Below, piece after piece: positions 1 through 43,109 of a DNA stretch of 64,000 nucleotides. How positions within the stretch are numbered: the first letter of the stretch is position 1; each line of letters begins with the position of its first letter. The notes under the pieces were generated by a model. The model was given only the letters and a program-made list of their open reading frames with translations. It was not told the origin of the DNA and ran no database searches. This DNA is from an uncultured Bacteroidales bacterium (GTDB taxonomy: Bacteria > Bacteroidota > Bacteroidia > Bacteroidales > JAGOPY01), in contig CAWGKX010000006.1 in the NCBI GenBank assembly GCA_963823285.1, positions 87,648 to 151,647 of the forward strand, in the 5' to 3' direction. The position numbers and the translations under genes are program-made.

Positions 1-1528
1 TGTGGCATTTACTGCAGGCCACATTCTGATGCTTTCCGTCAAGCGGGAACCTGGTCTTACTATGGTCAAAAACAGGGATCTTCCAGGCATTGGCATTGTG
101 GCACCTGTTGCAATCAGTAACGCCGTTTGCATCATCAAATTGCCTCGCGTGGATATCTTTATGGCAATTGGTACAGGTTGAGGTCAGGCCGGAAAATTTT
201 TGAACGACAGGTCCTTCAGCTTCTTTGGTGAAATGGCAGGTCCGGCATGTTTGATTCAGGTGGGCTCCCGTCAGTGCGAAATCAGTTTTTCCATGGTCGA
301 AATTAATTTCATGCCATGAATTGACAGTATGGCAGGCTTTGCAATCCGAATCAGGATAGAATTTCTTATCCAGGTAACCAACATGGATATCATTATGGCA
401 ATCAATACAACGGATCCCAATCTCGCGGAAACTCCATTTTTCTGATTTTTTATGACAAACAAAACAGGGTGTTGCAAGATGGGCGCCCTGTAATGGAAAT
501 GGGCTTTCGTTATGTTTTTCAATGGAATAGGAGAACAATGTGAACCCTTTTGTATCATGGCACGCGGAACAATCAGGTGATATTCCGTCTTTAGCGAACT
601 GGTTATGATGATAATCAATATGGCAATCGGTGCAGCGTGCAAATTTTACCGGATCGGTGAGCGCTGTTTTATGGCAGGATTTACAGGTGACGGTCTGATG
701 TTTATCTTCAAGTCTATAATCAGTCTTATTATGATCGAATCCTTTCATTCCCTGGATCGTATGAAACGATTCTTCATTATGGCACTGGCGGCAATCCGGT
801 CCGAACTTGTTTTTATGAGGGTCTGCATGGCAATCTGTACAGGCAGCAAATGGAATTCCGGTGAATTTCTGAACCTGTTTGCCATCTTTAATTTCCATTT
901 TATGGCATTTGATGCAATCAGTGGTCTGGTGTTTCCCGGCTAAAGCGTATTTTGTTTTACTGTGATCAAATTTTATGACCGGCTTAAAAGCATCAAATCC
1001 ATGACATTCCGCACAATTATTTGAAAGGCTTCCTTTGTGGAAATCAACGTGACAGCTCAGGCATGACGTACTTAGCCCCAGATAAGAAGCAATTTTTTTA
1101 TCTTTTATTTTCGGATCAGTTATGAATTCCGGTTTATGACAATCGGCACATTTCTTTTTTGCATGCGCCCCTTCCAGGTTATAACCGGCTAAGTTGTGAT
1201 TGAACTTTTCTTTTTCGAAACGGATAATTTCAAAGGTTCTGCCATGGTGATCATTATGGCAGCTAAAACAATCTTTCCCGGCTACACCGGAAGAAGAATG
1301 GTATCCTTTTTTCTGGTCAATACGTTGTTTTATTTCGGTATGGCAGGCAAGGCACTTCTCATTCGATACCTTATCTCCTAAGCTATGACATTGTGTGCAG
1401 TTGGACATGCCTTCCAGGCTGGAATGCACTTCTGACAAGTCACCGGGGGAAATTTGCGCAAGTATGCCATAATTGGAAAATACGGTCAGCCAAAATATTA
1501 TCACAAATATTCCGTAGCGTACTTTCAT
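1..1528 (-). CDS. Multiheme c-type cytochrome, N-terminal 509 codons (3' end lies beyond the left window edge)
   Basis: The gene is absent from the ORF track because it has no in-window stop. The reverse frame with codons at 2-4, 5-7 and so on is open from the ATG (rc of 1526-1528) to position 2. The N-terminus MKVRYGIFVIIFWLTVFSNYGILAQ looks like a signal peptide. I counted 19 in-frame CXXCH motifs, seen on the plus strand as RTG-RCA-N6-RCA. The His codons start at 2, 98, 161, 233, 329, 395, 452, 557, 620, 671, 779, 827, 902, 1001, 1049, 1136, 1256, 1340 and 1385. A recurring block of the form FDHxKTxFxLxGxHxxxxCxxCH is present. Confidence 0.85.
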   Translation of the reverse strand, partial: MKVRYGIFVIIFWLTVFSNYGILAQISPGDLSEVHSSLEGMSNCTQCHSLGDKVSNEKCLACHTEIKQRIDQKKGYHSSSGVAGKDCFSCHNDHHGRTFEIIRFEKEKFNHNLAGYNLEGAHAKKKCADCHKPEFITDPKIKDKKIASYLGLSTSCLSCHVDFHKGSLSNNCAECHGFDAFKPVIKFDHSKTKYALAGKHQTTDCIKCHKMEIKDGKQVQKFTGIPFAACTDCHADPHKNKFGPDCRQCHNEESFHTIQGMKGFDHNKTDYRLEDKHQTVTCKSCHKTALTDPVKFARCTDCHIDYHHNQFAKDGISPDCSACHDTKGFTLFSYSIEKHNESPFPLQGAHLATPCFVCHKKSEKWSFREIGIRCIDCHNDIHVGYLDKKFYPDSDCKACHTVNSWHEINFDHGKTDFALTGAHLNQTCRTCHFTKEAEGPVVQKFSGLTSTCTNCHKDIHARQFDDANGVTDCNRCHNANAWKIPVFDHSKTRFPLDGKHQNVACSKCH

Positions 1529-1555
1529 AAACGATCAGCTTTATATGTGATAAAG

Positions 1556-2887
1556 TTAATGCTTTAATATAGCCTCGCCAAACTTTTTTGTAATCTTGAG
1601 TCCCACTTTCTCCAGGAATTGTGTTGGAAGTTCGCCGCCGGCAAAGATATACACAAGGTCATTTTTTAAATTTACTTGTGATCCTTCTTTTTCCATTGCC
1701 AGCGTGACTTCATCTCTGTCTATTGCCACCGGACTTGTGTTGAACCTCACATCTACGCGTCCTTCTGCGATGGCATCGTTTATATTCTGATTATTCTTTG
1801 GTTTTAACCGGTTGAAAACATCGTTACGATAGGAGAGGACTACATTATTCTGCCCGGCAAGCAATAGTGCCGATTCAACGGCCGAATCACCCCCGCCAAC
1901 GACCAGGATATTCTTCCCCCTGATGTCTTCGGGCTCTAAAAGGCGGTAGGCCACTTTTTCCATTGTTTCGCCGGGAATGCCAAGTTTTCGCGGTGTCCCC
2001 CTTCGCCCGATCGTCAGCAGAACGAATTTGGTTTTGTATTCCTCCCCTGATAAGGTCACTACGTTAAAGTGACCATTTTCAGGAACAACTGCATCGACTT
2101 TTGAATTTTCTTTAATGACGATCTCGTTTTTATGCAGGACATCTTTCCATAATTCCAGTAATTCCGTTTTGCTGGTTTCGAAAAGCTTAATTTTTCCGAA
2201 CAGGGGAAGATCCATGGGCGAAGTCATTACAATCTTTGACCTTGGGAAAGTGTATACCGTCCCTCCCAATGTATCCTGTTCCAGGCAAACAAACTTGAAA
2301 TTGTGCATTTTTGCCGATAGGGAAGCGGAAATGCCGGCAGGGCCTGCCCCGATAATAACAAGGTCGTAATCGGCCTGATGATCCTTTTTAAATGCCTTTG
2401 AAATATTATCAACGGCTTGTTTACCTTGTATCACCGCATTTTTAATAAGCCCCATTCCTCCTAATTCACCGGCAATAAATATTCCCGTCACGTTTGTCTC
2501 GAAGTTCTGGTTGATATGCGGAAGATCCACGCCTCTTTTCTCGGTGCCGATTACAAGCGTAATAGCCTGTGTAGGGCAGGCATGAAAACAAGCGCCATGC
2601 CCGATGCAATGTGAAGCATTTATTGTAGTCGCTTTTCCATTCCTGATCCCCAGGATATCCTTTTCAGGGCAGGCCGTGATACAGGCGCCGCTTCCGATGC
2701 AGCTGTTAACGTCTACGACGGGGTGGAGGGATACCGGCTCGAATAGCCCTTCCTGCTTTGCCTTTTCTATCTTGGCTTCAACTTTTCTTGAGGACAGCTT
2801 CTTCTTTCTTAAATAGAAAAACACGACGACAACGCATAAAATCGCTGTCGAACCATATATCAATAGGCTTTCAACAGTAGATTCCAT
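1556..2887 (-). CDS. Membrane-anchored FAD/NAD(P)-dependent pyridine nucleotide-disulfide-type oxidoreductase with an N-terminal ferredoxin-like Fe-S domain
   Basis: The ORF track gives 1556..2911. I prefer the internal ATG at 2885-2887, which abuts the upstream stop at 2889 and starts at MESTVESLLIYGSTAILCVVVVFFYLRKKK (one TM helix). There are two ferredoxin-like motifs, CIGSGACITACP and CIGHGACFHACP. Two Rossmann motifs follow, DLVIIGAGPAGISASL and ILVVGGGDSAVESAL, as in thioredoxin-reductase-like flavoproteins. Confidence 0.75.
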   Translation of the reverse strand: MESTVESLLIYGSTAILCVVVVFFYLRKKKLSSRKVEAKIEKAKQEGLFEPVSLHPVVDVNSCIGSGACITACPEKDILGIRNGKATTINASHCIGHGACFHACPTQAITLVIGTEKRGVDLPHINQNFETNVTGIFIAGELGGMGLIKNAVIQGKQAVDNISKAFKKDHQADYDLVIIGAGPAGISASLSAKMHNFKFVCLEQDTLGGTVYTFPRSKIVMTSPMDLPLFGKIKLFETSKTELLELWKDVLHKNEIVIKENSKVDAVVPENGHFNVVTLSGEEYKTKFVLLTIGRRGTPRKLGIPGETMEKVAYRLLEPEDIRGKNILVVGGGDSAVESALLLAGQNNVVLSYRNDVFNRLKPKNNQNINDAIAEGRVDVRFNTSPVAIDRDEVTLAMEKEGSQVNLKNDLVYIFAGGELPTQFLEKVGLKITKKFGEAILKH

Positions 2888-2888
2888 T

Positions 2889-3758
2889 TTAAAATATCCA
2901 TCTGAATCCAAATGCCACAGTAACGCCGATATGGATTATCATGATTACAAACATGACAATCGCAAAAGGCAAATGTGCCACATGCCAGTATTTAAACAAA
3001 TTCTGCATGGTAACCAGTCTTTCGATCTTCCTGTTAAGGGCAATTTCATCTTTAACCAGACCAACTATTTTCGAATACTGTTCTCTCGGCAGTTGATTCT
3101 TTCTCAGAGCGGTTTTGACTTTCAGGATCGTATTCCGGTCGGTCCTCCTTTTCCTGAAATACAGGATAATGGCATTATCACTGTACAGTTCAACTTTTTT
3201 CCTTGTAGAATCAACAATTACATTGTAAGTTTGTTCATCCAGGTCATTCGCAAGGTTCAGGATCTGGCTCATGTCGCTTTTCAAATCCTTGACTTCACTA
3301 AGGCTTAATTCCCTTCCTTCAATCGTTCTTGGAATCTGGATATAGATGAACCTTCCTATGACGCCGCTTAGGAAAACTGCAACCATGCTCCAGAAACTGA
3401 CAGCTACCAGGCCACCAATCTTGAATGCGGAATGAAACAGTATCAGAACCGGGCCCAGGGTGCAAAGGAAAATATGAAATTCAAGCCAGTGCTTTAATTT
3501 GCCCAGGCGCATGAGCGACCTGCGCCTTTTCCTTATCATATAAGCGAAGACGCCAACCAGCATCAAAAATGAGCCAATGATCCCCAGGCCATGGCCCACA
3601 ATGCCGCTAGGTTTTAATGAATTATGATCTGCGTGGAAGAACCTCTGTTCCAGGCTCGTCAGGTAATAGGAAAAACCCCTGTAAGTCAGGAGAATAATTG
3701 TCAGGATAACAATCAGGGCAAATACGATGACATATATTTTATTAGCTAATCTGGACAT
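2889..3758 (-). CDS. Integral membrane protein of unknown function (His-containing TM helices)
   Basis: The 289-aa ORF has several long hydrophobic helices: VIVFALIVILTIILL, GLGIIGSFLMLVGVFAYMI, FHIFLCTLGPVLILFHSAF, LVAVSFWSMVAVFLSGVIG and LPFAIVMFVIMIIHIGVTVAF. It is tightly packed with the flavoprotein gene downstream. I recognise no family. Confidence 0.5.
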   Translation of the reverse strand: MSRLANKIYVIVFALIVILTIILLTYRGFSYYLTSLEQRFFHADHNSLKPSGIVGHGLGIIGSFLMLVGVFAYMIRKRRRSLMRLGKLKHWLEFHIFLCTLGPVLILFHSAFKIGGLVAVSFWSMVAVFLSGVIGRFIYIQIPRTIEGRELSLSEVKDLKSDMSQILNLANDLDEQTYNVIVDSTRKKVELYSDNAIILYFRKRRTDRNTILKVKTALRKNQLPREQYSKIVGLVKDEIALNRKIERLVTMQNLFKYWHVAHLPFAIVMFVIMIIHIGVTVAFGFRWIF

Positions 3759-3773
3759 AAAATATATTTATCC

Positions 3774-4397
3774 CTATTGAACTTCCACCTTGGCCCTTAC
3801 CTTTTTGATGATGTTCAGGGGGGTATCGGAGATTACCATATTCACCAACCATGCCGGGATGTTCCCGCCCGGATCGACAGAACCTTCAAGAGTAAGATGG
3901 ATCATTCCATCCGCCTCAGGTGTCATGGTCCATGACTGCCAGTAATTTTTAATCCGCACTTTGCCATGTTCTTCAGGGACGACATCCAGAAGAGGTGTGG
4001 CCATGACTTTGCGTACCCCCGTCACCGAATCATTCGTAATCACTGATTGAACGCACAGGTCGCGGTCTTCAAAAGGCCACTGCACATGATAAACCAGGTA
4101 ATATTTAATGTAATGCTCTTCCTTATAATCCAGCACTTTGATCTGGCTGATGGATTCATCCCACCAATCAAAGCTCTTTATATTCCCTATGACCAATCGC
4201 AACTTATCCATGGTGGTTTTAAGATCAACCTCGCCCCTGTATGATTTTACAGGGTTATTCTCATCATTGCGGGTATATATTTTAATTCCGTCGCGCTCTT
4301 TAATAAATTTCCAGTCCTGCCCGGAGAGCGAATTACTAAAAATCAGTGTGCAAATAATGGATATAAAATAAATGAGGAAAAATTTTTGCTTTCCCAT
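3774..4397 (-). CDS. Secreted START/SRPBCC-like lipid-binding domain protein
   Basis: The 207-aa ORF has the signal peptide MGKQKFFLIYFISIICTLIFSNSLSGQ. The pattern WKFIKERDGIKIYTR...YRGEVDL...W.....KVL......I.Y.......P...RD is what I associate with START domains. Confidence 0.6.
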   Translation of the reverse strand: MGKQKFFLIYFISIICTLIFSNSLSGQDWKFIKERDGIKIYTRNDENNPVKSYRGEVDLKTTMDKLRLVIGNIKSFDWWDESISQIKVLDYKEEHYIKYYLVYHVQWPFEDRDLCVQSVITNDSVTGVRKVMATPLLDVVPEEHGKVRIKNYWQSWTMTPEADGMIHLTLEGSVDPGGNIPAWLVNMVISDTPLNIIKKVRAKVEVQ

Positions 4398-4456: not shown

Positions 4457-4837
4457 TCAATTATGGGGCTGAATGACTATGACCCTGGATCTGCGATTGA
4501 ACAGTCCGGAGTATGTATCTGTAACTTTCAGCACAACATTGAAGTTTTTAGGCTCGCTGCTGCTGTTATTGAAAGTATGCTGCGGTTCTCTTTCCGAAGA
4601 AGACTGTCCGTCGTCGAAATTCCATTCGAATTTGTCAGCATTTTCGGAAGAGTTTGTGAACTGAACGGTCACAGGAGCCGGCCCGTCATTCCCTGACCAG
4701 CTGAAACCTGCAATCGGGGTGTTCACATAATAATCAGGCGGATTCTCCTTTTTAGAGCAGGATATAACCAATGCCCATACCGCGACAAAGTTGATGAACA
4801 GTAAAAATGATCTGATTGCAATCGTGTTCTGCATCAT
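4457..4837 (-). CDS. Small PKD-domain lipoprotein
   Basis: The 126-aa ORF has a lipobox (LVISC). The PKD-like core is VQFTNSSENADKFEWNFDDGQSSSEREPQHTFNN...FNVVLKVTD. Confidence 0.65.
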   Translation of the reverse strand: MMQNTIAIRSFLLFINFVAVWALVISCSKKENPPDYYVNTPIAGFSWSGNDGPAPVTVQFTNSSENADKFEWNFDDGQSSSEREPQHTFNNSSSEPKNFNVVLKVTDTYSGLFNRRSRVIVIQPHN

Positions 4838-5059
4838 TGTTCAGGGTCATTTAAGATTGCAAAGATACGGTTAATAAAAGGAACTTTCAAACTGTCCATT
4901 TGCAATCATCGTGAAAATCTTTGTGTTTCCTGTGAGAAAATAAAGCCATACCTTTTTTCGTTATCTTCATTGTTCAAAAAAAATCATAGGAAACTGACGA
5001 GATTGACATATGCCTTAATGTCATGAAATTTTATAGTAAATCAACTAAAACTAAAAAAT

Positions 5060-5852: not shown

Positions 5853-8047
5853 TTGCCAACCTCCGACATAAATTTGATCCGCATCAACCTGATCTCTTCT
5901 TCTGTAAATTCGTCTTCACCCAACTCAGCAAGCGCATCTTCGACTGAATCCGAATCAGCTTCACGGAAATAATCATAAATTTCTTCCTGGTGGTATTCGT
6001 CCACATATTCCTCGATATAATAATTGATATCGAGTTTTGTGCCGGAAGAAACTATCCTTTCGATCTCTGTTAATAGCTCGCCAATAGTCAGGCTTTTGGC
6101 AGTAGCAATATCTTCAAGCGCAAGTTTTCGGTCTATATTATGAATAATATAAACTTTCAGGCCTGACTTGTTTATGATGGACTTGACCACCATATCGTTG
6201 GGCCTGATAATATCGTTTTCTTCGACATACTGCTCAATCAGCTTCAGGAATGGCTCACCATATTTTTGAGCTTTACCGACGCCCACCCCGGTGATCTGGT
6301 GAAGTTCATCCTGTGTGATGGGATACTGGATAGCCATATCTTCCAGCGAGGGATCCTGGAAAATAACAAACGGAGGCAGATTTTCCTTCCGGGATATCTC
6401 TTTGCGAAGGTCTTTCAGTAACGAAAAAAGCGTCTTGTCGGCCGTGCTTGTTTTATGAGCTCCCTCGAGGATATCTTCGTCCTCTTCCAGATTATCATAA
6501 TCACGATCATGCGTAAGCATAACCGGGTAAGGTTTTTTCAGGAACCTGAAGCCTTCCTTGCTGACCTTCAGGATGCCGTAGTTCTCTATATCTTTAACAA
6601 GGAGCTGGCTGATGAGCGCCTGCCTGATGACAGCATTCCAGAATCTTTCATCTTCGTCAGCACCTTTGCCGAACTCCTCCAGCAGATTATGCTTATAAGA
6701 TTTCATCGTGGTCGAATTCTTGCCAACAAGGATATTGACGATGTGCTTGGCCTTAAATTGCTGCTTTACTGCCAGGACAGATTCGATAGCCAGTTTGATG
6801 AAATCTTTTCCTTCGAATTTTGCTTTTGGGTGCAGGCAATTATCGCAGGAACCGCAATTCTCCTTCGGATACTCTTCTCCAAAATAATGCAATAAGAGTT
6901 TATGACGGCATACGGCAGATTCAGCATACGCGACGGTTTCCTGCAGAAGTTCCTTAGCTATTTCCTGCTCGGCTACCGGTTTGTCTTTCATAAACTTTTC
7001 AAGCTTGAGGATATCGTCATAGCTGTAAAAAGCAATGCAATTTCCTTCACCGTCATCCCGGCCGACACGCCCGGTTTCCTGGTAATAGCTTTCCAGGCTC
7101 TTGGGCATATCATAATGGATCACATACCTGATGTCAGGTTTATCGATTCCCATTCCAAAAGCGATCGTAGCCACGATAACATCAACATCTTCCATCAGGA
7201 ACCTGTCCTGGTTCAACTTTCTGGTATTCGATTCAAGGCCGGCATGGTAGGGGAGCGCTTTGATCCCGTTTACCACAAGGCTTTCCGCCATTTCTTCGAC
7301 CTTTTTGCGGCTCATACAGTAAACGATCCCTGATTTCCCGGAATTCGCCTTGATATATTTTATGATATCCTTAACGACTGTTTCGGTTTTGGGCCTGATC
7401 TCATAATATAAGTTGGGCCGGTCAAATGAAGATTTAAATATTGTGGAATGGGGGATTTCCAGATTTTTGATGATATCCTGCTGTACTTTTGGCGTGGCAG
7501 TGGCCGTCAGGGCAATTACCGGAACATCCTGGCCGATTGTTTCGATGATTGGCCTGATCCTCCTGTATTCAGGCCTGAAGTCATGCCCCCATTCGGATAT
7601 GCAGTGAGCTTCATCAATAGCGTAGAAAGAGATATTTATGTTTCGCAGGAATTCGACATTCTCATCTTTAGTCAGAGATTCCGGTGCGACATAAAGCAGC
7701 TTGGTGCTCCCTTCAATCAGATCCTGCCTCACTTCTTTCATTTCAGCTTTACTAAGTGAAGAATTCATGAAATGTGCCAGGTTATGTTCCGTTCCAAAGT
7801 TGCGGAGATTGTCGACCTGGTTCTTCATAAGCGCAATCAGCGGTGAAACTATTATGGCAGTCCCTTCGCACATCATTGCGGGAAGTTGATAGCATAATGA
7901 CTTGCCTCCGCCCGTAGGCATTATTACAAACGTATCCTTTTTTGAAAGAAGGTGTTTGATAATTGCCTCCTGGTTTCCCTTAAAGTTGTCGAAGCCAAAA
8001 ACATCCTTCAGCACCTCCTTCATCAATGCTGCTTCCTTTACTATCAT
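5849..8047 (-). CDS. recQ: ATP-dependent DNA helicase RecQ
   Basis: The 732-aa ORF carries the helicase motifs MPTGGGKSLCYQLPA, DEAHCISEWGHDFRPEY, ALTATAT, FGMGIDKPDIRYVIHYD and YYQETGRVGRDG. It also has a Zn-binding CRHxxLLxYFGE...CxxCDNC block and a C-terminal HRDC-like region. An alternative start exists at Met9. Confidence 0.95.
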   Translation of the reverse strand: MIVKEAALMKEVLKDVFGFDNFKGNQEAIIKHLLSKKDTFVIMPTGGGKSLCYQLPAMMCEGTAIIVSPLIALMKNQVDNLRNFGTEHNLAHFMNSSLSKAEMKEVRQDLIEGSTKLLYVAPESLTKDENVEFLRNINISFYAIDEAHCISEWGHDFRPEYRRIRPIIETIGQDVPVIALTATATPKVQQDIIKNLEIPHSTIFKSSFDRPNLYYEIRPKTETVVKDIIKYIKANSGKSGIVYCMSRKKVEEMAESLVVNGIKALPYHAGLESNTRKLNQDRFLMEDVDVIVATIAFGMGIDKPDIRYVIHYDMPKSLESYYQETGRVGRDDGEGNCIAFYSYDDILKLEKFMKDKPVAEQEIAKELLQETVAYAESAVCRHKLLLHYFGEEYPKENCGSCDNCLHPKAKFEGKDFIKLAIESVLAVKQQFKAKHIVNILVGKNSTTMKSYKHNLLEEFGKGADEDERFWNAVIRQALISQLLVKDIENYGILKVSKEGFRFLKKPYPVMLTHDRDYDNLEEDEDILEGAHKTSTADKTLFSLLKDLRKEISRKENLPPFVIFQDPSLEDMAIQYPITQDELHQITGVGVGKAQKYGEPFLKLIEQYVEENDIIRPNDMVVKSIINKSGLKVYIIHNIDRKLALEDIATAKSLTIGELLTEIERIVSSGTKLDINYYIEEYVDEYHQEEIYDYFREADSDSVEDALAELGEDEFTEEEIRLMRIKFMSEVGN

Positions 8048-20939: not shown

Positions 20940-21716
20940 CTATCCAGAGATTCTTCTCCTGTAAATGAACAATGTAACCACTGTCATCAGTCCGATGCCC
21001 AGGAACAATGACCAGTTCGAAAGTGGTATCTTATGGCCGCAATTAGTGGATACACAGATGGTGCTCACGGGTTGACCAACAGAGTTTCCGTTAAAATTAT
21101 ATTCCCAGTTGAACTGGACGACGTTTTCGGTGGTTGGGGATGAATCTTGCTGACCGGTCTGATCGACAACCGTCATAACCACTCCGTCATCACCTTGCAG
21201 GTAACCTCCTGACAGGAAATCTTCCTGCAGGTCCCAGATAATGGGTGGACAGAAATTATCCACTCCTTCCAGTGCAACTGGATCTTTTACCCGGAAACAG
21301 ATATGGAATAACTTGGTCCACGTGGTAGTGGACAAAGAGATAGTCGCAGGGCCAAACACCTGGACCTGCCCGTTGAACCATTCCAGCGGGCCGGAAAGTC
21401 CGAAGAAAGACCCGCTACCGGGAGCTTGTTGCTCAACCACGGGAGGTTCCAGAACGTTATATCCATCCTGGAAGTCACCTATTGACAGGTATTCAAGGAT
21501 ATTGCCATCATAAAAGAAGCGGACATTCATCCCAAATAGCTTCTGCCCGGGAGTATCGGAAATAAATTCGACGTCCAGGCAATAGGTTTGGGTGGGACAG
21601 TCGTAAACCGGATTGGCAAAACGAACTGTCACCACAGGTAAAGCAGGTTGAGCCGCGACTTGAAATCCAGATAAAACCAGGATAAAAAGCACAGGCAGAT
21701 AGATTTTAGTTTTCAT
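20940..21716 (-). CDS. Cohesin-like domain protein with C-terminal TM/basic sorting-signal-like tail (copy A)
   Basis: The 258-aa ORF has the signal peptide MKTKIYLPVLFILVLSGFQVAAQ. Its module contains VRFFYDGNILEYLSIG, matching the xIxYDxxxLxFxG landmark of the other cohesin-like modules in the locus. The tail is IPLSNWSLFLGIGLMTVVTLFIYRRRISG. Confidence 0.6.
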   Translation of the reverse strand: MKTKIYLPVLFILVLSGFQVAAQPALPVVTVRFANPVYDCPTQTYCLDVEFISDTPGQKLFGMNVRFFYDGNILEYLSIGDFQDGYNVLEPPVVEQQAPGSGSFFGLSGPLEWFNGQVQVFGPATISLSTTTWTKLFHICFRVKDPVALEGVDNFCPPIIWDLQEDFLSGGYLQGDDGVVMTVVDQTGQQDSSPTTENVVQFNWEYNFNGNSVGQPVSTICVSTNCGHKIPLSNWSLFLGIGLMTVVTLFIYRRRISG

Positions 21717-23118
21717 AATATGCTTGTTTTATAATGATACAATAACATGACATTCTTTTGCAGGATAAATCCTGTGTTGGTTTGATAAGATTAAAGAATA
21801 TATGATCTTTCATGACCGTGGGAATTTAATTTTTGGGTACTGAAGAGAATTTACCATTGTTAAACTCCCAGGTGGTGCGATCGTTATAATTGCAGTCACC
21901 GTTGAGGTTGTAATCGCCGGTGCGATAACGGCCTGTAGTGCCATTCTGACCTTCCCAGTAGGTTCTGTCATCAAAGTTGATATCAGTAACAGAACTGGCA
22001 GGGATCACCTGCTGACCATTACCGGCATACATGGCGAAGATGCCCGGGAGGATCTCCTTCTGTCCGTAGCCTAATCCGGTGATAACATCGATATAACTCT
22101 GGACATTACGGAAGTCGAAAGTGAGGGTGTCATTGGCGATAGGCACCGGATCAGCAGACATGACAATCAGGTGATTACGATGTTCGATGACCAGGTAGTA
22201 GGAACTGTCTAAATTCAGGCTGCAGCAGTCAAAACCACCATCCACAAATTCGATATGGCCGTCGTTATGCAGTAGTGCAGCTTTGCGGCATAGATTTCCA
22301 CCTTCGGGGGCACTCCTGAGGGATACCAGCACCCAATCCACCACAGTGGCAGGATAGTTAGCAGTGCCAGGATTTGGGTTTCCATGAGAATCATATCCGA
22401 AGCCTTCAGTGCCGTTATAATTCCAGGGAGCACCAGAATAAGGCTGTCCCGGAGGAGTATATACGTTACCGGAAAAGACACTAAAGTATGTTTGACCCGG
22501 CAATATCTTCAGGTTGTTGAGACTGGTGCGCATGGGCACGGTATAAGTCTGGGTACCTCCCGGATTAATCGCAGCACCGTCAAGATATACCCAGGTTTTA
22601 ACAAACAGATCGCTGATGTTGATGATCTGCTGGCATGTCGCTGGATTACCGCAATTATCCTCAATCTCGTAGGTTCGAATGATTGTATTTCCGGATGGTA
22701 CATCACTCACCCAGATAAAGGAACCCTCATCGATACCGCAATTATCCGAGGCGGAACCACCGGCAGCGACGAAGGCTGCATAGTTGGCATACGGATCGGG
22801 TGCCGTGCATATCACAGAAAGGCCAGCAGGGCAGTTCAATGTGGGAGGCTCATTATCGCTTACAGTATAGGTGTAAGTCCAGTCGGCCGTTGTGGTTCCA
22901 TCGCAGGCGGTATAGCGGTATGTCCAGACAACCTGGCCTTCGCAAATAATCGGGTTAGGCGTTGTCACAGAGCCTACCAGAACGGAGGACACTGTTCTTC
23001 CGCATGCATCAGTAATATTAGCTGGGGCACCCGGATTCACTGCATCTACAGAGCAGGATACGGTGGATAATCCGTTAGCCGGCGGGGTAAGTCCGCTGGA
23101 GTAGATAACCGTGTAGGT
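20954..23118. repeat. Segmental duplication, copy A (partner 33866..36029)
   Basis: The two copies are collinear at a constant offset of 12912/12911 bp. They differ by a handful of substitutions and one 1-bp indel in the intergenic part. The segment covers the 258-aa gene, the intergenic spacer and the 3' 1.3 kb of the giant gene. Confidence 0.9.
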
Positions 23119-26100
23119 CTTGGTCCAGTCGGCCGTGGTGGTTCCGTTACAGGCAGTATAACGGTATCTCCAGACAATAGATCCATTGCAGGTCACCGGG
23201 TTGGGTGTTTGTTCCTTACCAATTAAGGTTGCCGAGACGGTACGTCCGCAGGCATCGGTAATATTGGCAGGGGCACCCGGATCGGTTGCATTGGACGGGC
23301 AGGAAACAGTGGCGGTGGTGTTGACCGGAGGGGTCAGACTACCGGAGTAAATAACCGTGTAGGTCTTGGTCCAGTCGGCCGTGGTGGTTCCGTCACATGC
23401 GGTATAACGGTATCTCCATACGATCGATCCATTGCAGTCCACCGGATCAGGTGATTGTTCTTTGCCAATTAAGGTTGCCGAGACGGTACGTCCGCAGGCA
23501 TCGGTAATGTTTTCCGGAGCCCCCGGATCGGTTGCATTGGACGGGCAGGAAACAGTGGCGGTGGTGTTAACCGGAGGGGTCAGACTACCGGAGTAAATAA
23601 CCGTGTAGGTCTTGGTCCAGTCGGCCGTAGTGGTTCCATCACAGGCGGTATAACGGTATCTCCAGACGATAGATCCGTTGCATGTCACCGGGTTGGGTGT
23701 TTGTTCCTTACCAATTAAGGTTGCCGAGACGGTACGTCCGCAGGCATCGGTAATGTTGGCAGGAGCGCCCGGGTCGGTTGCATTGGACGGGCAGGAAACA
23801 GTGGCAGTGGCGTTAACCGGAGGGGTTAGTCCGCCAGAGTAAATCACCGTGTAGGTCTTGGTCCAGTCGGCGGTGGTGGTTCCGTCACATGCGGTATAAC
23901 GGTATCTCCAGACGATCGATCCATTGCATGTCACCGGGTTGGGAGTTTGTTCCTCGCCGACTAAGGTTGCCGGGCCGGTAAGTCCGCAGGCATCGGTAAT
24001 GTTGGCAGGAGCGCCCGGGTCGGTTGCATCAGCCGGGCAGGAAACAGTGGCGGTGGCGTTAGCCGGAGGGGTAAGTCCGCCGGAGTAAATCACCGTGTAG
24101 GTCTTGGTCCAGTCGGCCGTAGTGGTTCCATCACAGGCGGTGTAACGGTATCTCCATACGATCGATCCGTTGCAGGTCACCGGGTTGGGTGTTTGTTCCT
24201 CGCCGACTAAGGTTGCCGAGACAGTGCGTCCGCAGGCATCGGTAATGTTGGCAGGCGCCCCTGGATCGGTTGCATTGGACGGGCAGGAAACAGTGGCGGT
24301 AGTGTTAACCGGAGGGGTAAGTCCGCCGGAGTAGATCACCGTGTAGGTCTTGGTCCAGTCGGCCGTTGTGGTTCCGTCACAGGCGGTATAACGGTATCTC
24401 CATACGATCGATCCGTTGCAGGTCACCGGGTTGGGTGTTTGTTCCTCGCCGACTAAGGTTGCCGAGACAGTGCGTCCGCAGGCATCGGTAATGTTGGCAG
24501 GCGCCCCTGGATCGGTTGCATTGGACGGGCAGGAAACAGTGGCAGTGGCGTTAGCCGGAGGGGTCAGGCCGCCAGAGTAGATCACCGTGTAGGTCTTGGT
24601 CCAGTCGGCCGTTGTGGTTCCATCACAGGCGGTATAACGGTATCTCCAGACGATCGATCCGTTGCAGGTCACCGGGTTGGGTGTTTGTTCTTCGCCAACT
24701 AAGGTTGCCGAGACAGTGCGTCCGCAGGCATCGGTAATGTTGGCAGGCACCCCAGGGTCGGTTGCATTGGACGGGCAGGAAACAGTGGCAGTGGCGTTAG
24801 CCGGAGGGGTCAGTCCGCCGGAGTAGATCACCGTGTAGGTCTTGGTCCAGTCGGCCGTTGTGGTTCCGTCACAGGCGGTATAACGGTATCTCCATACGAT
24901 CGATCCATTGCAGGTCACAGGGTTGGGTGTTTGTTCCTCACCGACTAAGGTTGCCGAAACGGTACGTCCGCAGGCATCGGTAATGTTGGCAGGAGCGCCC
25001 GGGTCGGTTGCATTGGACGGGCAGGAAACAGTGGCGGTGGTGTTAGCCGGAGGGATCAAGCCGCCGGAGTAAATAACCGTGTAGGTCTTGGTCCAGTCGG
25101 CCGTTGTGGTTCCATCACAGGCGGTATAACGGTATCTCCAGACGATCGATCCATTGCAGTCCACCGGGTTGGGTGTTTGTTCTTTCCCGACTAAGGTTGC
25201 CGGGACGGTACGTCCGCAGGCATCGGTAATATTGGCAGGAGCACCCGGATCGGATGCATTGGACGGGCAGGAAACAGTGGCGGTGGTGTTAACAGGAGGA
25301 GTAAGTCCGCCGGAGTAAATAACCGTGTAGGTCTTGGTCCAGTCGGCCGTTGTGGTTCCGTCACAGGCGGTATAACGGTATCTCCAGACAATAGATCCAT
25401 TGCAGGTCACCGGGTTGGGTGTTTGTTCCTTGCCAATTAAGGTTGCCGGGACGGTACGTCCGCAGGCATCGGTAATATTGGCAGGAGCGCCCGGGTCGGT
25501 TGCATTGGACGGGCAGGAAACAGTGGCGGTGGTGTTAGCCGGAGGGGTCAGGCCGCCGGAGTAGATAACCGTGTAGGTCTTGGTCCAGTCGGCCGTTGTG
25601 GTTCCATCACAGGCGGTATAACGGTATCTCCATAGGATCGATCCGTTGCATGTCACCGGATCAGGTGTTTGTTCCTCACCGACTAAGATTGCCGAGACGG
25701 TACGTCCGCAGGCATCGGTAATGTTTTCCGGAGTCCCCGGATCGATTGCATTGGACGGGCAGGAAACAGTGGCGGTGGCGTTAACCGGAGGGGTCAGTCC
25801 GCCGGAGTAAATAACCGTGTAGGTCTTAGTCCAGTCGGCCGTTGTGGTTCCATCACAGGCGGTATAACGGTATCTCCATACGATAGATCCATTGCAGTCC
25901 ACTGGGTTGGGTGTTTGTTCCTTACCAATTAAGGTTGCCGAGACGGTACGTCCGCAGGCATCGGTAATGTTGCCAGGAGCGCCCGGGTCGGTTGCATTGG
26001 ACGGGCAGGAAACAGTGGCGGTGGTGTTAGCCGGAGGGGTCAGTCCGCCGGAGTAGATAACCGTGTAGGTCTTGGTCCAGTCGGCCGTTGTGGTTCCATC

Positions 26101-29100
26101 ACAGGCGGTATAACGGTATCTCCATACGATCGATCCATTGCAGGTCACCGGGTTGGGAGTTTGTTCCTCACCGACTAAGATTGCCGAGACGGTACGTCCG
26201 CAGGCATCGGTAATGTTGCCAGGAGCGCCCGGGTCGGTTGCATTGGACGGGCAGGAAACAGTGGCGGTGGTGTTAACCGGCGGGGTCAGTCCGCCGGAGT
26301 ATATAACCGTGTAGGTCTTGGTCCAGTCGGCGGTGGTGGTTCCATCACAGGCGGTATAACGGTATCTCCATACGATCGATCCATTGCAGTCCACCGGATC
26401 AGGTGATTGTTCCTTACCGACTAAGGTGGCAGAGACGGTACGTCCGCAGGCATCAGTAATGTTTTCCGGAGCGCCCGGATCGGTTGCATTGGACGGGCAG
26501 GAAACAGTGGCGGTTGTGTTAACCGGAGGGGTCAGTCCGCCGGAGTAAATAACCGTGTAGGTCTTGGTCCAGTCGGCCGTGGTGATTTCGTCACAGGCGG
26601 TATAACGGTATCTCCATAGGATCGATCCGTTGCATGTCACCGGATCAGGTGTTTGTTCCTCACCGACTAAGGTTGCCGAGACAGTGCGTCCGCAGGCATC
26701 GGTAATGTTTTCCGGAGCGCCCGGATCGATTGCATTGGACGGGCAGGAAACAGTGGCGGTGGTGTTAACCGGCGGGGTAAGTCCGCCGGAGTAAATAACC
26801 GTGTAGGTCTTGGTCCAGTCGGCCGTTGTGGTTCCATCACAGGCGGTATAACGGTATCTCCATACGATAGATCCATTGCAGTCCACCGGATCAGGTGTTT
26901 GTTCCTCACCGACTAAGGTTGCCGAGACAGTGCGTCCGCAGGCATCGGTAATGTTTTCCGGAGTCCCCGGATCGGTTGCATTGGACGGGCAGGAAACAGT
27001 GGCGGTTGTGTTAACCGGAGGTGTCAGTCCGCCGGAGTAAATCACCGTGTAGGTCTTGGTCCAGTCGGCCGTTGTGATTTCGTCACAGGCGGTATAACGG
27101 TATCTCCAGACGATCAATCCATTGCAGTCCACCGGGTTGGGTGTTTGTTCTTTCCCGACTAAGGTTGCCGAGACGGTACGTCCGCAGGCATCGGTAATGT
27201 TGCCAGGAGCGCCCGGGTCGGTTGCATTGGACGGGCAGGAAACAGTGGCGGTGGTGTTAACCGGCGGGGTCAGTCCGCCGGAGTAAATAACCGTGTAGGT
27301 CTTGGTCCAGTCGGCCGTTGTGGTTCCATCACAGGCGGTATAACGGTATCTCCATACGATCAATCCATTGCAGTCCACCGGGTTGGGTGTTTGTTCCTTG
27401 CCAATTAAGGTTGCCGAGACGGTACGTCCGCAGGCATCGGTAATGTTGGCAGGAGCGCCCGGGTCGGTTGCATTGGACGGGCAGGAAACAGTGGCGGTGG
27501 TGTTAACCGGAGGGGTCAGTCCGCCGGAGTAAATAACCGTGTAGGTCTTGGTCCAGTCGGCCGTTGTGATTTCGTCACAGGCGGTATAACGGTATCTCCA
27601 GACGATCGATCCATTGCAGTCCACCGGGTTGGGTGTTTGTTCTTTCCCGACTAAGGTTGCCGAGACGGTACGTCCGCAGGCATCGGTAATGTTGCCAGGA
27701 GCGCCCGGGTCGGTTGCATTGGACGGGCAGGAAACAGTGGCGGTGGTGTTAACCGGAGGTGTCAGTCCGCCGGAGTAAATAACCGTGTAGGTCTTGGTCC
27801 AGTCGGCCGTTGTGATTTCGTCACAGGCGGTATAACGGTATCTCCAGACGATCGATCCATTGCAGTCCACCGGGTTGGGTGTTTGTTCTTTCCCGACTAA
27901 GGTTGCCGAGACGGTACGTCCGCAGGCATCGGTAATGTTGCCAGGAGCGCCCGGGTCGGTTGCATTGGACGGGCAGGAAACAGTGGCGGTGGTGTTAACC
28001 GGAGGTGTCAGTCCGCCGGAGTAAATAACCGTGTAGGTCTTGGTCCAGTCGGCCGTTGTGATTTCGTCACAGGCGGTATAACGGTATCTCCATACGATCG
28101 ATCCATTGCAGTCCACCGGATCAGGTGATTGTTCCTTACCGACTAAGGTGGCAGAGACGGTACGTCCGCAGGCATCAGTAATGTTTTCCGGAGCGCCCGG
28201 ATCGGTTGCATTGGACGGGCAGGAAACAGTGGCGGTTGTGTTAACCGGAGGTGTCAGTCCGCCGAAGTAAATCACCGTGTAGGTCTTGGTCCAGTCGGCC
28301 GTTGTGATTTCGTCACAGGCGGTATAACGGTATCTCCATACGATCGATCCGTTGCAGTTTACCGGATCAGGTGTTTGTTCCTTGCCAACTAAGGTTGCCG
28401 AGACGGTACGTCCGCAGGCATCGGTAATATTGGCAGGGGCACCCGGATCGGTTGCATTGGACGGGCAGGAAACAGTGGCGGTGGTGTTAACCGGAGGGGT
28501 CAGTCCGCCGGAGTAGATAACCGTGTAGGTCTTCGTCCAGTCGGCCGTGGTGATTCCATCACAGGCGGTATAACGGTATCTCCAGACGATCGATCCATTG
28601 CAGTCCACCGGATCAGGTGATTGTTCCTTACCGACTAAGGTGGCAGAGACGGTACGTCCGCAGGCATCGGTAATATTGGCAGGAGCACCCGGATCGGTTG
28701 CATTGGACGGGCAGGAAACAGTGGCGGTGGTGTTAACCGGAGGGGTCAGTCCGCCGGAGTAGATAACCGTGTAGGTCTTCGTCCAGTCGGCCGTGGTGAT
28801 TCCATCACAGGCGGTATAACGGTATCTCCAGACGATCGATTCATTGCAGTTCACCGGGTTGGGAGTTTGTTCCTTGCCGACTAAGGCTGCCGAGACGGTA
28901 CGTCCGCAGGCATCGGTAATGTTGGCAGGAGCACCCGGATCGGTTGCATTGGACGGGCAGGAAACAGTGGCGGTGGTGTTAACCGGAGGGGTCAGTCCGC
29001 CGGAGTATGTAATGGTATAGGTATAAGTCCATACAAATTCTAGGTTGGCACAATCCTTATAAGTGTAAATCCAGGTATAGGTTCCATTGCAGCCGGCATA

Positions 29101-32100
29101 GCTTCCGCCATTTGTTGGAGTCGGGACAGAAAGGATATTGCCGCATATATCTTTGACCACAGGCAGGGTAATAGGTGCTGTGGCATTGGCCAGACACTGA
29201 ACGGTACCGCCATTGGTTGAAACCGGTCCGCCGGACTCGGCAGGTGGAGTGGTATGAGTGAGGTTGAAAACCTGTGTGCATGTGTTGGGATTACTGCAGG
29301 AATCCGTTACCTGGTAAGTCCGCGTGACAGTTAATGCACATGTCCCTTCGACTGTCTGTCCTAAATAACTAAAGGTATAGATATCACCACAATTATCAGT
29401 GGCTGTTCCACCTGCAGCGCGAAATGCTCCTATGTTTGCATAAGGAGCTGGTAAGTCTGCAACGCACTGATAGCTTGAACTGCCGGGAGGACAGGTAATC
29501 GAAGGAGCTATTGAATCCTTCACCGTAATCGTCTGTGAGCAATCTGCGTGATTTCCGCTTTGGTCAGTGGCTCGGTAAGTTCGCGTAATAGTGAATTTAT
29601 TTGGGCACGTCTTATTTGTGATAACGTCTCCCTGCCATGTAATAAGAATATCAGCAGGTAGGGTACAATCGTCAGTCGCGGTCACAGAAGAAGTATTTTC
29701 CGGAGGTACTGCTGAAGCACAGGCAACAGTCAAATTCGCCGGGCATGTAATATTTGGCGCAGAGTTAGGTGGCAGCGTACTGAATGAAATATCATCTAAG
29801 CCAAAATCATTTCCTCCCGCAATGGTTTGAAGATCAACGATTCTTATTACTGCAGAAGTGTTGCTGCCTGAATTCCAAACAGAATAGAATCTATTCCAGA
29901 CGAAAGGTCCTGCAGTTGTGGTGGCTCCTGGAGGCAATTGAAAAGGATATCCCAGCAGAATGCCATTTATACTGAATTGCAAAAATGCGTACGTATTATT
30001 TGCCTGGTTTAAACTCATTGCCCAGGCGTTAAAATAGTAATTGGTGTTTGGTGTGACCGTAATATTCTCTTGCCATACTGTTATACCGGGAGAGACATTG
30101 CCATTTATAGCCATATAAAGGCCAGTGCCCGGGTTTGTGTGATCAGTACCGAAAAAATTGGTATGTTGTGCATTAGAATTAGGTGTAACTGCATAAAGTC
30201 CTTCAGGCACCAGATCTGCCGGAGCATAAATATATGCAGATGTAAAACCTGTATTTCCCGCCGTAAAGTTTCCATTCGTGACAAGTTCACCGCCAACATT
30301 AACGTCTTGTGTATTTGAGCATCCGCCCGCAGTTGTGACGGTAACAGTATAAATACCTGCCTGATGCGCAATAATGGATTGTGTGGTCTCTCCTGTATTC
30401 CATAAGTAAGAGGCAAATGCGGGATCGACCGTCAATTGAATATCGACATTTTGTATACAATTATTTGAATTTATTGTAAACGAGGGCGCTGTACCTCCCG
30501 ACACTGTCACAGTCACTGTTCCGCAGGCTGAATTCAGGTTACATGGACTGCCGGATTCATAGCGGCCCCAATATTGTGTAGTACCAGCTGGTGTTACTTT
30601 TAAATTATCTCCTGTCCCAACGAGAGTACCGCCGCAACTTCCGGTATACCATTTAATCGTTTGTGCGCCTCCTCCTGCGCCTCCGCCACCCCCGGTCAAA
30701 GAAAGAATAGAAAAGCCCCCGGTACAGATCGAAGCAGGACTGGCAGCAGCCGTTGGAGCGCCAATTGCAGCGCATGCTGCACCGATAGCAAAATCACCGA
30801 AACCGGATAGTCCTGTAGCTGTTGTAGATGTTGCAAGTGGGTTAGTTGTTGTTGGTGAAGTCCAGGCGGAAGAAAAGAATCTTTTAACTAAAAAGTTCGC
30901 AGTGATGTTCTTAGCTGAGGGATCTATATCAACCGGAGTTACCCAGCCAATAAAAGTAAATGTAGCAGTGTATGTTCCTATTGCAAGAGCGCCTCCTGCA
31001 GTTAAAGTCCAGTAACGGTTAACATCATTGGCAGGATCAATGCCTGAAGTATTAATATTAGGATGTTCAGTTTTAGTGTTTTTGGCTGTTAAAGTTCCGG
31101 CAACTGTTACATTTAGTGCCGTAATGGCGATAGGAGTGTAGCTAAGCGAATCTCCAATGTAAAACGTCTTGGATTGGCCGGCTCCGGTCCCTAATGTCCA
31201 CTCTAAATTTCCATAAACATACAAGCCGGCTCCTGCTCCAACCACACTTGCAGCTGTGCCAAGAGTCAGTTTATTTGCTCCTGTCGTGATTTTTCCGCTT
31301 GTGAAGGTGAGTATACCTGTAACAGTTGCATTCACCCCATTTAGCTTAACTCCCCCGGTATTATCGATGGTTAAATTAGTAAATGTCGTCGCACTTGAAC
31401 CGCTTATAGTCTGTGCTCCTCCATTGAAAACTATAGTACCTGTGTTTGCGGTAAATGTGCCATTGTTTGTCCAGTCACCGACTAAACTAAGTGTATTTAT
31501 CGAACCAAGCAATATCCCGCCTGTGTTTATAGTAAGCTTACTCGCTGTTGAAGCAGCATTGACGGTTATTGTATGCCCGCTGAGAATGGTAATGGAAATG
31601 GCGGCATTGGTAGGTACAACGGACGAAGTCACCCATATGACATTATCGGTTGAGATTTCCCAAGTATTTGCAGTGTTCCAGTTACCTGTGATCCTTGAAC
31701 GAAAATAATTGGCAAAAGGTTCACCGATCTGGAAATCACTGAAACTCGTAAGCCCCGTAGCTTGTGTAGTCGTCGCCGTTCTTGTCCCGGTAGTTGTTGA
31801 GTTCCATACGGAAGAAGCGAACCTTTGAATGATGAAGTTCGCAGTATTAGCTCCGGCATCCAGATCACCGGGGTTAATAAAAGTAAACGTGGCGTTATAA
31901 TTCGATAAAACAAGCCCTCCACCGGAGGCTAATGTCCAGTAACGATTAACTGATCTTATTGGTGCAATGTTGGAGCTGCCAATGTTCGGATGATCGCCGG
32001 CAGTTGTGCGCGCCATTGTAGTTCCGGGAGTGGTCACACTATTGAAAGTAATGGAAACCGGTGTATAAGCCGTCTCATCACCGATTGCAAAATTTTTGGT

Positions 32101-33465: not shown

Positions 33466-33785
33466 AAAAATAAATCTTTTGGTATTTTTTTCAATGGCTC
33501 TTGTTTTGACGCTGCCATCAACCTGGGGAAAAGAGTAAATATTTTTCATGATTTTCTTTTTGGATTTAATACTTGGATCTTTTTTTATTGCAGGGGGGAA
33601 AATTCATTGAAACTATTAATTACGGGGGTGATAATGAATCACTGATTGAAGCTTCAAAATGGACATAATGATTCAAAAACCAGTAAGTGCTGAAAATCAT
33701 AATATTAGATAAAAAAAATTGTAATTATAAATTGGTTAATGACTTAGACTAAGGAAAGGTACAAAATATTTTAATACACAGCACA

Positions 33786-43041: not shown

Positions 43042-43109
43042 AGCTTTTTTATTTATAATTATATTGATTAATTCGAATATCTGTTAAAGGTAATATTATT
43101 TTTTAATGC

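Follow-up and report, generated by a model that had tools for sequence, protein, structure and literature searches.

To our knowledge, mechanistic understanding of extracellular electron transfer is restricted to a few Proteobacteria and Desulfobacterota, where the process always starts from quinol dehydrogenases. MtrCAB of Shewanella and the OmaB/OmbB/OmcB Pcc of Geobacter each combine, at one locus, an outer cytochrome with a periplasmic one and a barrel in the outer membrane (10 + 10 or 8 + 12 hemes), and the quinol dehydrogenases (CymA, ImcH, CbcL) are encoded elsewhere. In Hmc and Tmc of Desulfovibrio, a c3-type periplasmic cytochrome, a membrane cytochrome b and a cytoplasmic Fe-S protein share one operon, without an outer-membrane part. 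Here, we analyse a 64,000 nucleotide (nt) stretch of DNA, referred to as the window, from an uncultured Bacteroidales bacterium (GenBank assembly GCA_963823285.1, contig CAWGKX010000006.1, positions 87,648 to 151,647). Its first 3,758 nt encode a multiheme cytochrome c (the first cytochrome), a membrane-anchored Fe-S flavoprotein and an inner-membrane protein (Table 1), followed in related loci by a second multiheme cytochrome and a ~540 amino acid (aa) protein. The locus resembles MtrCAB and Pcc in encoding a periplasmic cytochrome together with a putative barrel and outer cytochrome, and differs from them in its heme numbers (20 plus 13-64) and in having its own inner-membrane module. It shares with Hmc and Tmc the combination of a periplasmic c3-type cytochrome, a (proposed) membrane cytochrome b and a cytoplasmic Fe-S protein; however, the membrane and cytoplasmic subunits are unrelated, with the flavoprotein in place of the HdrD/CCG protein.

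The porin-cytochrome gene cluster PCC3 is known from genome analysis and modelling only, in Alpha-, Beta- and Gammaproteobacteria, where it is mostly associated with Fe(II) oxidation and linked to quinones. Its components are two cytochromes, one extracellular, larger and repeat-rich with a median of 34 hemes and one periplasmic with a median of 21 hemes at a low residue-to-heme ratio, together with a porin and a ~300-aa protein of the inner membrane (He et al. 2017, PMC5566968). The latter has five transmembrane (TM) helices with an SGxxG motif on TM4 and W-x3-H-x13-H motifs on TM3 and TM5, and has been proposed to bind two b hemes and to contact quinone (PMC5566968). The periplasmic PCC3 cytochrome of Gallionellaceae carries 21, 24 or 27 hemes (PMC10734462). 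Four of the five parts of the present system have counterparts in PCC3, if the putative barrel is counted as the porin; the extracellular cytochrome of PCC3 carries 10-63 hemes. Here too the second cytochrome adjoins the first, with an extracellular location that is putative, and the periplasmic heme count changes in steps of three (21/24/27 in PCC3, 20/23 here). The membrane protein in the window displays all three signature features, a likeness established from shared motifs and the published description. In contrast to PCC3, a TM-anchored Fe-S flavoprotein is co-encoded in each Bacteroidales locus examined as well as in a Gemmatimonadales one; such a flavoprotein is not mentioned in either PCC3 paper (PMC5566968, PMC10734462).

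With moderate confidence, we propose that the three genes encode the inner half (cytoplasmic membrane and periplasm) of a trans-envelope conduit of five genes that resembles PCC3, with an added module for NAD(P)H oxidation as its entry point. Related loci have been noticed in papers on metagenome-assembled genomes (MAGs) and are uncharacterised; the added flavoprotein changes the proposed source of electrons. In the Bacteroidota literature, lake MAGs have been described with 'putative novel PCCs', a MAG enriched on an anode with a cytochrome cluster of seven genes, and a Lentimicrobium MAG, recovered only in incubations with conductive carbon particles, with a '61 + 20 heme' porin-cytochrome cluster (PMC13013709). 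An inner-membrane module is not described in those mentions that we found.

Table 1. Features of the cluster and its upstream neighbours, in window coordinates.
Feature	Position	Strand	Remarks
Periplasmic multiheme cytochrome c	1..1528	-	first 509 of ~534 codons in window; 19 of 20 CXXCH
M6, two-heme terminal partial module	2..76	-	aa 485-509 in window; last ~24 aa beyond edge
Five tandem c7-like tri-heme modules	77..1210	-	M1 107-184, M2 185-261, M3 262-334, M4 335-407, M5 408-484 (aa); from module alignment, Cytochrome_C7 and repeating predicted secondary structure
N-terminal tri-heme unit	1211..1456	-	aa 25-106, hemes 1-3; layout unlike modules
Signal peptide	1457..1528	-	aa 1-24; ...GILA/QISPG cleavage; Sec type, read from sequence
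Membrane-anchored Fe-S flavoprotein	1556..2887	-	443 aa; N-terminal TM helix, ferredoxin-like and FAD/NAD(P) domains
FAD/NAD(P) two-Rossmann domain	1589..2359	-	GAGPAG at aa 180, GGGDSA at aa 331
Second match to TATCTTTG	1642-1649	-	in 3' end of flavoprotein gene, ~114 nt upstream of cytochrome start
Ferredoxin-like domain	2573..2722	-	aa 56-105; motifs CIGSGACITACP and CIGHGACFHACP; Pfam Fer4 families matched
Inner-membrane protein	2889..3758	-	289 aa; 5 TM helices, ~100-aa cytoplasmic helical insert before TM5
TM5 motif W258-x3-H262-x13-H276	2931..2987	-	as in PCC3 inner-membrane signature
TM4 motif S131-G-V-I-G135 (SGxxG)	3354..3368	-	as in PCC3 signature
TM3 motif W91-x3-H95-x13-H109	3432..3488	-	as in PCC3 inner-membrane signature
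START-domain protein with signal peptide	3774..4397	-	Pfam START 26.9 bits; 15 nt upstream of membrane protein gene
Small PKD-domain protein	4457..4837	-	lineage-specific neighbour
TATCTTTG	4860..4867	-	match to Bacteroidetes -7 consensus TAnnTTTG; 23 nt upstream of PKD gene

The periplasmic multiheme cytochrome

The open reading frame (ORF) of the first cytochrome starts with the ATG at 1528 and leaves the window at its left edge. CXXCH motifs are found at residues 44, 59, 87, 127, 156, 172, 205, 230, 246, 282, 299, 320, 355, 374, 396, 428, 452, 473 and 505, and account for all Cys present (38/38). At the protein's own extreme Cys/His content, ~0.24 such motifs are expected by chance (505 x 0.075^2 x 0.084). 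Every CXXCH was found to be invariant in an alignment of 60 homologues. Comparison with homologues puts the full-length protein at 533-534 aa and 20 hemes (~26 aa per heme for 20 hemes in 533 aa), with ~24-25 aa and heme 20 located outside the window; a length of 534 aa is given by the gene call for the same genome on a Logan contig. Homologues with 20 hemes are 529-543 aa long and have a C-terminal end ...CESCHH.

Residues 107-484 form five modules (M1-M5) of 73-78 aa each, which follow the pattern F-[DN]-H-x8-G-x-H-x4-CxxCH ... CxxCH-x-D-x-H ... CxxCH. Each contains three CXXCH and three invariant extra His (located in FDH, GxH and CH-x-D-x-H), and one FDH block, at residue 336, is degenerate (IEKHNESPFPLQGAH). 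The whole sequence matches Cytochrome_C7 (PF14522) with 72.6 bits over four stretches (Pfam cut-off 24.8), followed by PF14537 (58.0 bits) and PF02085 (34.6 bits). Cytochrome_C7 is also the top Pfam family for every module M1-M5 (19.7-30.5 bits), with nearly the whole 67-position profile covered; taken singly, only M1 passes the cut-off (30.5 bits), with M2-M5 at 19.7-23.1 bits. The top Pfam match of the N-terminal tri-heme unit is class III cytochrome c (c3). A profile search identified the GSU1996 c7 polymer (3OV0, E 1.7e-5) as the closest solved structure, followed by a c7-like domain protein and HmcA. An AlphaFold2 (AF2) model (pLDDT 76, ~79 for the modular part) displays the same secondary-structure string in each module. 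A Foldseek search of the Protein Data Bank (PDB) with this model gave no match, and the Foldseek comparison neither supports nor contradicts the c7 assignment or that of heme b discussed below.

A preliminary description of this DNA, made from the sequence alone, had listed 19 CXXCH in 509 aa with spacings of 15, 28, 40, 29, 16, 33, 25, 16, 36, 17, 21, 35, 19, 22, 32, 24, 21 and 32, which our count reproduces exactly. It had noted a likeness to polymerised tri-heme c7-type domains, a view borne out by the Pfam scores, by 3OV0 as nearest structure and by the AF2 repeats; a predicted structure lacking a repeat, which it had named as refuting this view, is not what the model displays. Its six groups of three hemes have the right period and the wrong register, shifted by one unit since the FDH block opens each module. 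Likewise, the FDH block it had assigned to every group is found in the complete modules, is lacking for hemes 1-3 and is degenerate once. The heme count had been given as a minimum; the gene does continue, by 24-25 aa and a single heme.

GSU1996 and the PpcA-type c7 cytochromes of Geobacter sulfurreducens likewise consist of ~75-aa tri-heme c7-type domains, arranged in tandem as a linear heme wire. GSU1996 is ~12 nm long with 12 hemes, and has one His-Met heme per domain. Its similarity to the first cytochrome is weak (27 bits); in contrast to GSU1996, the N- and C-terminal units differ here, all hemes are apparently bis-His and the gene is found in the context of a dedicated trans-envelope cluster. 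Scores against curated families were below their cut-offs for the Geobacter nanowire c7 domain (NCBIfam TIGR04257, 17.3 vs 40 bits), the HmcA hexadecaheme (NF045713, 30.2 vs 400 bits) and the DmsE/MtrA decaheme (TIGR03508, 37.4 vs 192.2 bits), and membership of the Mtr, Hmc and Geobacter nanowire families was rejected on these grounds.

The non-motif His residues that are invariant in the 60-sequence alignment number exactly 20 for 20 hemes, i.e. one distal ligand per heme. This implies that all 20 hemes should be bis-His and without an open catalytic site, and thus that the protein would be a pure electron-transfer wire rather than an enzyme. A role as catalytic multiheme reductase was rejected, given that each heme has a distal His. 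The signal peptide, read directly from the sequence, has no lipobox Cys, and the mature N-terminus Q25-I-S-P-G is invariant in the 60 homologues and kept in a Gemmatimonadales relative. It is possible that the N-terminal unit (QISPG...H35 invariant) is the docking end toward the membrane protein.

The number of hemes varies little. Among the 120 best homologues it is 20 in 94 and 23 in 26, the latter being ~605 aa long and thus exactly one module larger. In the 65 related loci counted, 62 encode 20 hemes and three encode 18-19; the Gemmatimonadales relative (L089; loci are given L numbers) likewise has 20. By analogy with the ~12 nm per 12 hemes of GSU1996, 20 hemes would span ~20 nm, about the width of the periplasm.

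The membrane protein and the flavoprotein

The AF2 model of the membrane protein (pLDDT 89.5, pTM 0.79) contains five membrane helices as assigned by DSSP. In a set of 63 membrane proteins with identities as low as 28%, three His residues (H109, H262, H276) never vary, and two more (H95, H259) are >90% conserved. Under the positive-inside rule, the RKRRR loop and the ~100-aa insert are both assigned to the cytoplasmic side, and hence one His pair to each membrane face. We infer that H95/H262 are located near the cytoplasmic and H109/H276 near the periplasmic face, which corresponds to the classical geometry of two stacked b hemes, and propose the protein to be a di-heme cytochrome b. No Pfam or NCBIfam family was matched at E <= 0.01. 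The membrane protein has >7,000 homologues (~2,900 clusters at 50% identity), nearly all unnamed or 'hypothetical', and the named matches among its distant relatives are confined to Bacteroidota and Gemmatimonadales.

The proposed arrangement resembles the NOX/FRE/STEAP proteins (PF01794), in which electrons pass from NAD(P)H via FAD and two stacked b hemes to an acceptor on the far side, and whose His pairs are likewise 13-14 residues apart on TM3 and TM5 (here H95/H109 and H262/H276). The membrane protein does not match PF01794, and Foldseek returned no NOX, STEAP or cytochrome b. Furthermore, these proteins have 6 TM helices in contrast to 5 here, and a fused FNR-like domain is replaced by a separate, thioredoxin reductase (TrxR)-like polypeptide with an interposed Fe-S domain.

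For that polypeptide, the flavoprotein, the ATG at 2887 (443 aa) is the most likely start codon; a start at the TTG at 2911 (451 aa) would overlap the preceding gene. With this start, the membrane protein and flavoprotein genes are separated by 1 nt and the flavoprotein and cytochrome genes by 27 nt. The RKKK sequence following the N-terminal TM helix indicates the rest of the protein is cytoplasmic. In the ferredoxin-like domain, 69 orthologues follow the patterns C-I-x-[ST]-G-A-C-x-x-A-C-P and C-[IV]-G-H-G-A-C-F-H-A-C-P. The second Cys is thus missing from both motifs (69/69): the first has Ser or Thr in its place, the second an invariant His, and the canonical 2x[4Fe-4S] ferredoxin pattern of two CxxCxxCxxxCP with 8 Cys is absent from the flavoprotein. 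In the distant relatives L085 and L089, the first motif is canonical and the His of the second is kept. These motifs suggest a 3Fe-4S or hetero-ligated cluster together with a His-ligated 4Fe-4S cluster.

The FAD/NAD(P) domain matches Pyr_redox_3 (139.5 bits) and Pyr_redox_2 (97.0 bits), both above the Pfam threshold, and the nearest PDB entries are YpdA/Bdr (7A7B) and a TrxR-type ferredoxin-NADP reductase (3AB1). The flavoprotein does not reach the cut-offs of the YpdA equivalog TIGR04018 (147.8 vs 339.9 bits) or of thioredoxin reductase TIGR01292 (78.1 vs 343.5 bits). Outside the ferredoxin-like domain the flavoprotein contains no CxxC, and a disulfide reductase role was rejected for want of a redox-active CxxC. 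By eye, ETNVTGIFIAGELGG (flavoprotein aa ~120-140, window ~2470-2530, reverse strand) resembles an FAD-binding 'GD' motif. It is located N-terminal to the first GxGxxG, where TrxR-like enzymes normally have 'GD' at the C-terminal end, and the flavin domain may be circularly permuted; a HMMER sub-alignment of this flavoprotein segment was not significant.

The gene cluster and the proposed electron path

The synteny of the cluster was determined in a sample of 80 loci from GTDB species representatives. In each of the 68 loci whose upstream flank is long enough, the membrane protein, flavoprotein and cytochrome genes occur in this order on one strand; the median gap is 3 nt between the first two and 33 nt between the last two. 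The sample was drawn from at least 559 relatives: the first cytochrome is present in at least 559 GTDB species representatives and has >4,900 homologous protein clusters. Carriers are mostly MAGs assigned to Bacteroidales-type anaerobic lineages. The cluster is thus widespread in Bacteroidales and not rare, with hundreds of uncultured anaerobic carriers. In the long-read MAG locus L003/L015 (contig_8413, 1.68 Mb), the membrane protein and flavoprotein genes are fragmented, as is an unrelated Cpn60 gene, most likely owing to homopolymer sequencing errors and not to pseudogenisation.

For the DNA beyond the window edge, the L001/L002 locus (85% identical, fully syntenic) was taken as proxy. The next gene there encodes a 1,013-aa cytochrome with 40 CXXCH and overlaps the first cytochrome gene by 22 nt; on the Logan contig of the present genome, the next gene is at least 777 aa long and has the same 22-nt overlap. 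Across related loci, this adjoining second cytochrome carries 13-64 hemes, bringing the sum for both cytochromes to 33 to 84. It is followed in L001/L002 by a 542-aa protein without a Pfam domain, and a ~540-aa gene is present at this position in 59/59 loci with enough downstream flank. The ~540-aa proteins are Tyr-rich and carry a signal peptide; 62/65 end in Phe, and the number of amphipathic beta segments is at least 14. Matches to OMP_b-brl, Porin_4 or DUF2490 were sub-threshold and seen in 7/40 members; a Pfam match to MtrB_PioB was absent, and a PDB profile search with the alignment gave no meaningful match. Indirectly, these sequence features mark the protein as a likely, though putative, outer-membrane barrel.

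The ~540-aa protein is a putative barrel, and the second cytochrome is putatively exposed at the cell surface, which leaves room for a system confined to the periplasm, in which the cytochromes act as a capacitor, as the literature has suggested for high heme counts, or reduce soluble periplasmic substrates, the ~540-aa protein being an unrelated outer-membrane protein or substrate porin. We consider this very improbable, as 20 apparently bis-His hemes leave no catalytic site, the ~540-aa gene follows the second cytochrome in 59/59 loci, and the latter ranges over 13-64 hemes against a near-constant number in the first. The contrast between a constant and a free heme count fits a conduit with one constrained and one unconstrained span, an idea raised before for PCC3.

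Drawing on the observed gene content, motifs, module structure, conservation and synteny, we propose heme b binding, protein contacts, a donor, a direction of flow and acceptors as follows. The flavoprotein, held at the cytoplasmic face by its single TM helix, would accept hydride from NAD(P)H on FAD and pass single electrons via its two Fe-S clusters, of which the His-ligated one would be typical of an exit cluster. Electrons would then cross the membrane within the 5-TM protein, through two b hemes held between TM3 and TM5 (H95/H262 on the cytoplasmic side, H109/H276 on the periplasmic side), thereby bypassing the quinone pool. From the periplasm-side heme b they would reach heme 1 of the first cytochrome, whose 20 bis-His c hemes would act as a wire of fixed length over the periplasm. 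The second cytochrome and the ~540-aa barrel would finally hand them over outside the cell, for instance to minerals containing Fe(III) or Mn(IV), to humics, to conductive particles or to partner cells. Such an outlet would let fermentative Bacteroidales shed reducing equivalents.

Several points weigh against this proposal. Heme b binding is proposed from sequence motifs; for the membrane protein model, Foldseek found no solved likeness in the PDB (best E 0.2, TM-score <=0.28), and a PDB profile search with the membrane protein alignment gave no relative and at most coiled-coil noise. The use of NAD(P)H, and any choice between NADH and NADPH, is read from the Rossmann motifs and so remains inferred. 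The second cytochrome and the barrel, with its putative fold, are located outside the window; of the next gene in this genome, 777 aa from the N-terminus are on record. PCC3 in iron oxidisers has been proposed to run inward and via quinones (He et al. 2017, PMC5566968). Outward flow via two b hemes would dissipate membrane potential, so that the pathway would by itself conserve no energy; the likely pay-off is redox balancing of fermentation and not proton pumping. Finally, in L084 and L088 (both short contigs) the membrane protein adjoins the cytochrome without a flavoprotein between them, which indicates that the flavoprotein is not obligatory for the family.

This last point bears on a rather unlikely alternative, in which the 5-TM protein is a quinol/quinone-reactive cytochrome b acting on the menaquinone pool, and the flavoprotein plays an accessory part, as an NAD(P)H:quinone-type feeder or in regulation or protection, instead of donating directly to heme b. 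He et al. 2017 gave this type of membrane protein a quinone-active role in PCC3 (PMC5566968). In addition to the flavoprotein missing from this position, L088 (GCA_976565105.1) has the cytoplasm-side His95 replaced by Tyr and His259 by Asn, as though that variant alone had lost the cytoplasmic input site. L084 (Logan ERR14837235) encodes a 964-aa molybdopterin oxidoreductase upstream, with a 182-aa TPR-like protein in between, and it is possible that the cytoplasmic input module is exchangeable. On the other side, all 68 Bacteroidales loci retain the flavoprotein gene, mostly at a distance of 1-3 nt to the membrane protein gene, and it is kept over three gene arrangements and at least two phyla. 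In L085 the order is flavoprotein, membrane protein, multiheme cytochromes of 17 and 9 hemes (MHC17, MHC9) and a 446 aa protein, with all five components kept, and the Gemmatimonadales MAG L089 has a divergent flavoprotein beside membrane protein-MHC20-MHC16-528 aa. The distant membrane protein relatives L086 and L087 were too short or uninformative for gene context. The flavoprotein's own TM anchor and His-ligated cluster also suit inter-protein transfer, and no quinone-site motif was identified in the membrane protein.

The same hardware could also run inward, with extracellular donors (Fe(II), reduced humics, cathodes, Fe(0) or syntrophic partners) feeding it and the flavoprotein passing the electrons on to NAD(P)+ or some internal acceptor. 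In principle, multiheme wires work in both directions, PCC3 was first described in Fe(II) oxidisers, for which it has been modelled as a route of uptake, and some Prolixibacter strains are reported to corrode Fe(0). However, entry against an inside-negative potential up to NAD(P)+ (-320 mV) needs donors of very low potential, an energy-coupling subunit is not encoded in the cluster, and the carriers' cultured relatives are largely fermenters that would benefit from an electron sink. Hence, inward operation appears unlikely.

Outward transfer from NAD(P)H, which the preliminary description had put forward as a possibility for the three genes, remains the best-supported reading. That the three genes belong together, as it had supposed, is upheld by their invariant order and short gaps; the operon it had drawn is correct as far as it goes and extends past the window edge to the second cytochrome and the putative barrel. 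Its 'His-containing membrane protein' is indeed polytopic and contains His, yet the exact PCC3 di-heme b signature had gone unrecognised. Its remark that such a module is unusual for Bacteroidota is contradicted by the number of species carrying the cytochrome. A more far-reaching version of the proposal is conceivable, though less likely than not: a self-contained, quinone-independent, 'NOX-like' NAD(P)H export line in anaerobic, mostly fermentative Bacteroidales and some Gemmatimonadota, running via FAD, two unusual Fe-S clusters and a pair of b hemes in a membrane protein of unclassified fold, then along a monomeric 20-heme ruler over the periplasm and an extracellular 13-64-heme cable threaded through a new type of porin.

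Neighbouring genes and biological meaning

Upstream of the membrane protein gene, the START gene is probably co-transcribed with the cluster in this genome. It adjoins the cluster only in the closest relatives L001, L004 and L005, and is considered lineage-specific and outside the conserved system. In L001, a Methyltransf_21 gene (6747-7586) is inserted between the START and membrane protein genes, which are separated by 15 nt (3759-3773) in the window; the upstream boundary of the operon thus differs between close relatives. A transcript running into the cluster may begin at the TATCTTTG match that precedes the PKD gene. The match within the flavoprotein gene may be coincidental, or may serve the cytochrome genes as an internal promoter. 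With 49 matches observed vs 48 expected, the -7 motif is about as frequent in the window as chance predicts, and scanning for sigma-70 promoters and terminators gives no useful information in Bacteroidota.

L001 (16555-21602) and L002 (9516-14599) encode, immediately downstream of the five genes, a protein of >2,360 aa with NosD/beta-helix, PKD, SprB, CHU_C and type IX secretion tail domains. Elsewhere in the window, on the reverse strand, a 3,907-aa ORF (21826-33549) contains ~25 tandem 246-nt (82-aa) repeats of ~88-100% identity (22828-29031). A paralogous 1,689-aa ORF (34737-39806) has five more copies (35739-37022) and Pfam matches to HYR_4C (x6) and PKD_6. Both giant proteins are probably surface adhesins, with a clearly unequal number of repeats. 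Immediately downstream of each is a 258-aa ORF (20940-21716 and 33852-34628, reverse strand); the two share the same first 30 residues, have a signal peptide and match no Pfam family. A unit of giant protein and small partner appears to have been duplicated. A run of large secreted proteins follows (40579-51786, reverse strand), with cohesin domains in two (43110-45380 and 45427-47121) and type IX secretion C-terminal sorting domains in 45427-47121 and 47215-51786, consistent with a Bacteroidota host.

If the proposed conduit operates as outlined, it would provide a compact and complete route by which electrons of a cytoplasmic pyridine nucleotide leave the cell, in a phylum that is usually deemed fermentative. 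It would add a fifth, formerly unrecognised component to PCC3-type systems, with a different energetic logic. Two large families of 'hypothetical proteins' (>7,000 membrane protein clusters, ~2,900 at 50% identity) would also gain a function that can be tested. The fixed periplasmic and free outer heme counts yield a testable 'molecular ruler' hypothesis, and natural single-polypeptide heme wires of 20 to 64 hemes, varying in length by whole tri-heme modules, could be of appeal to bioelectronics. Hundreds of uncultured Bacteroidales species in sediments, digesters and lakes would become candidate electroactive organisms, offering a possible explanation for the enrichment of Bacteroidales/Lentimicrobiaceae on anodes and conductive particles.

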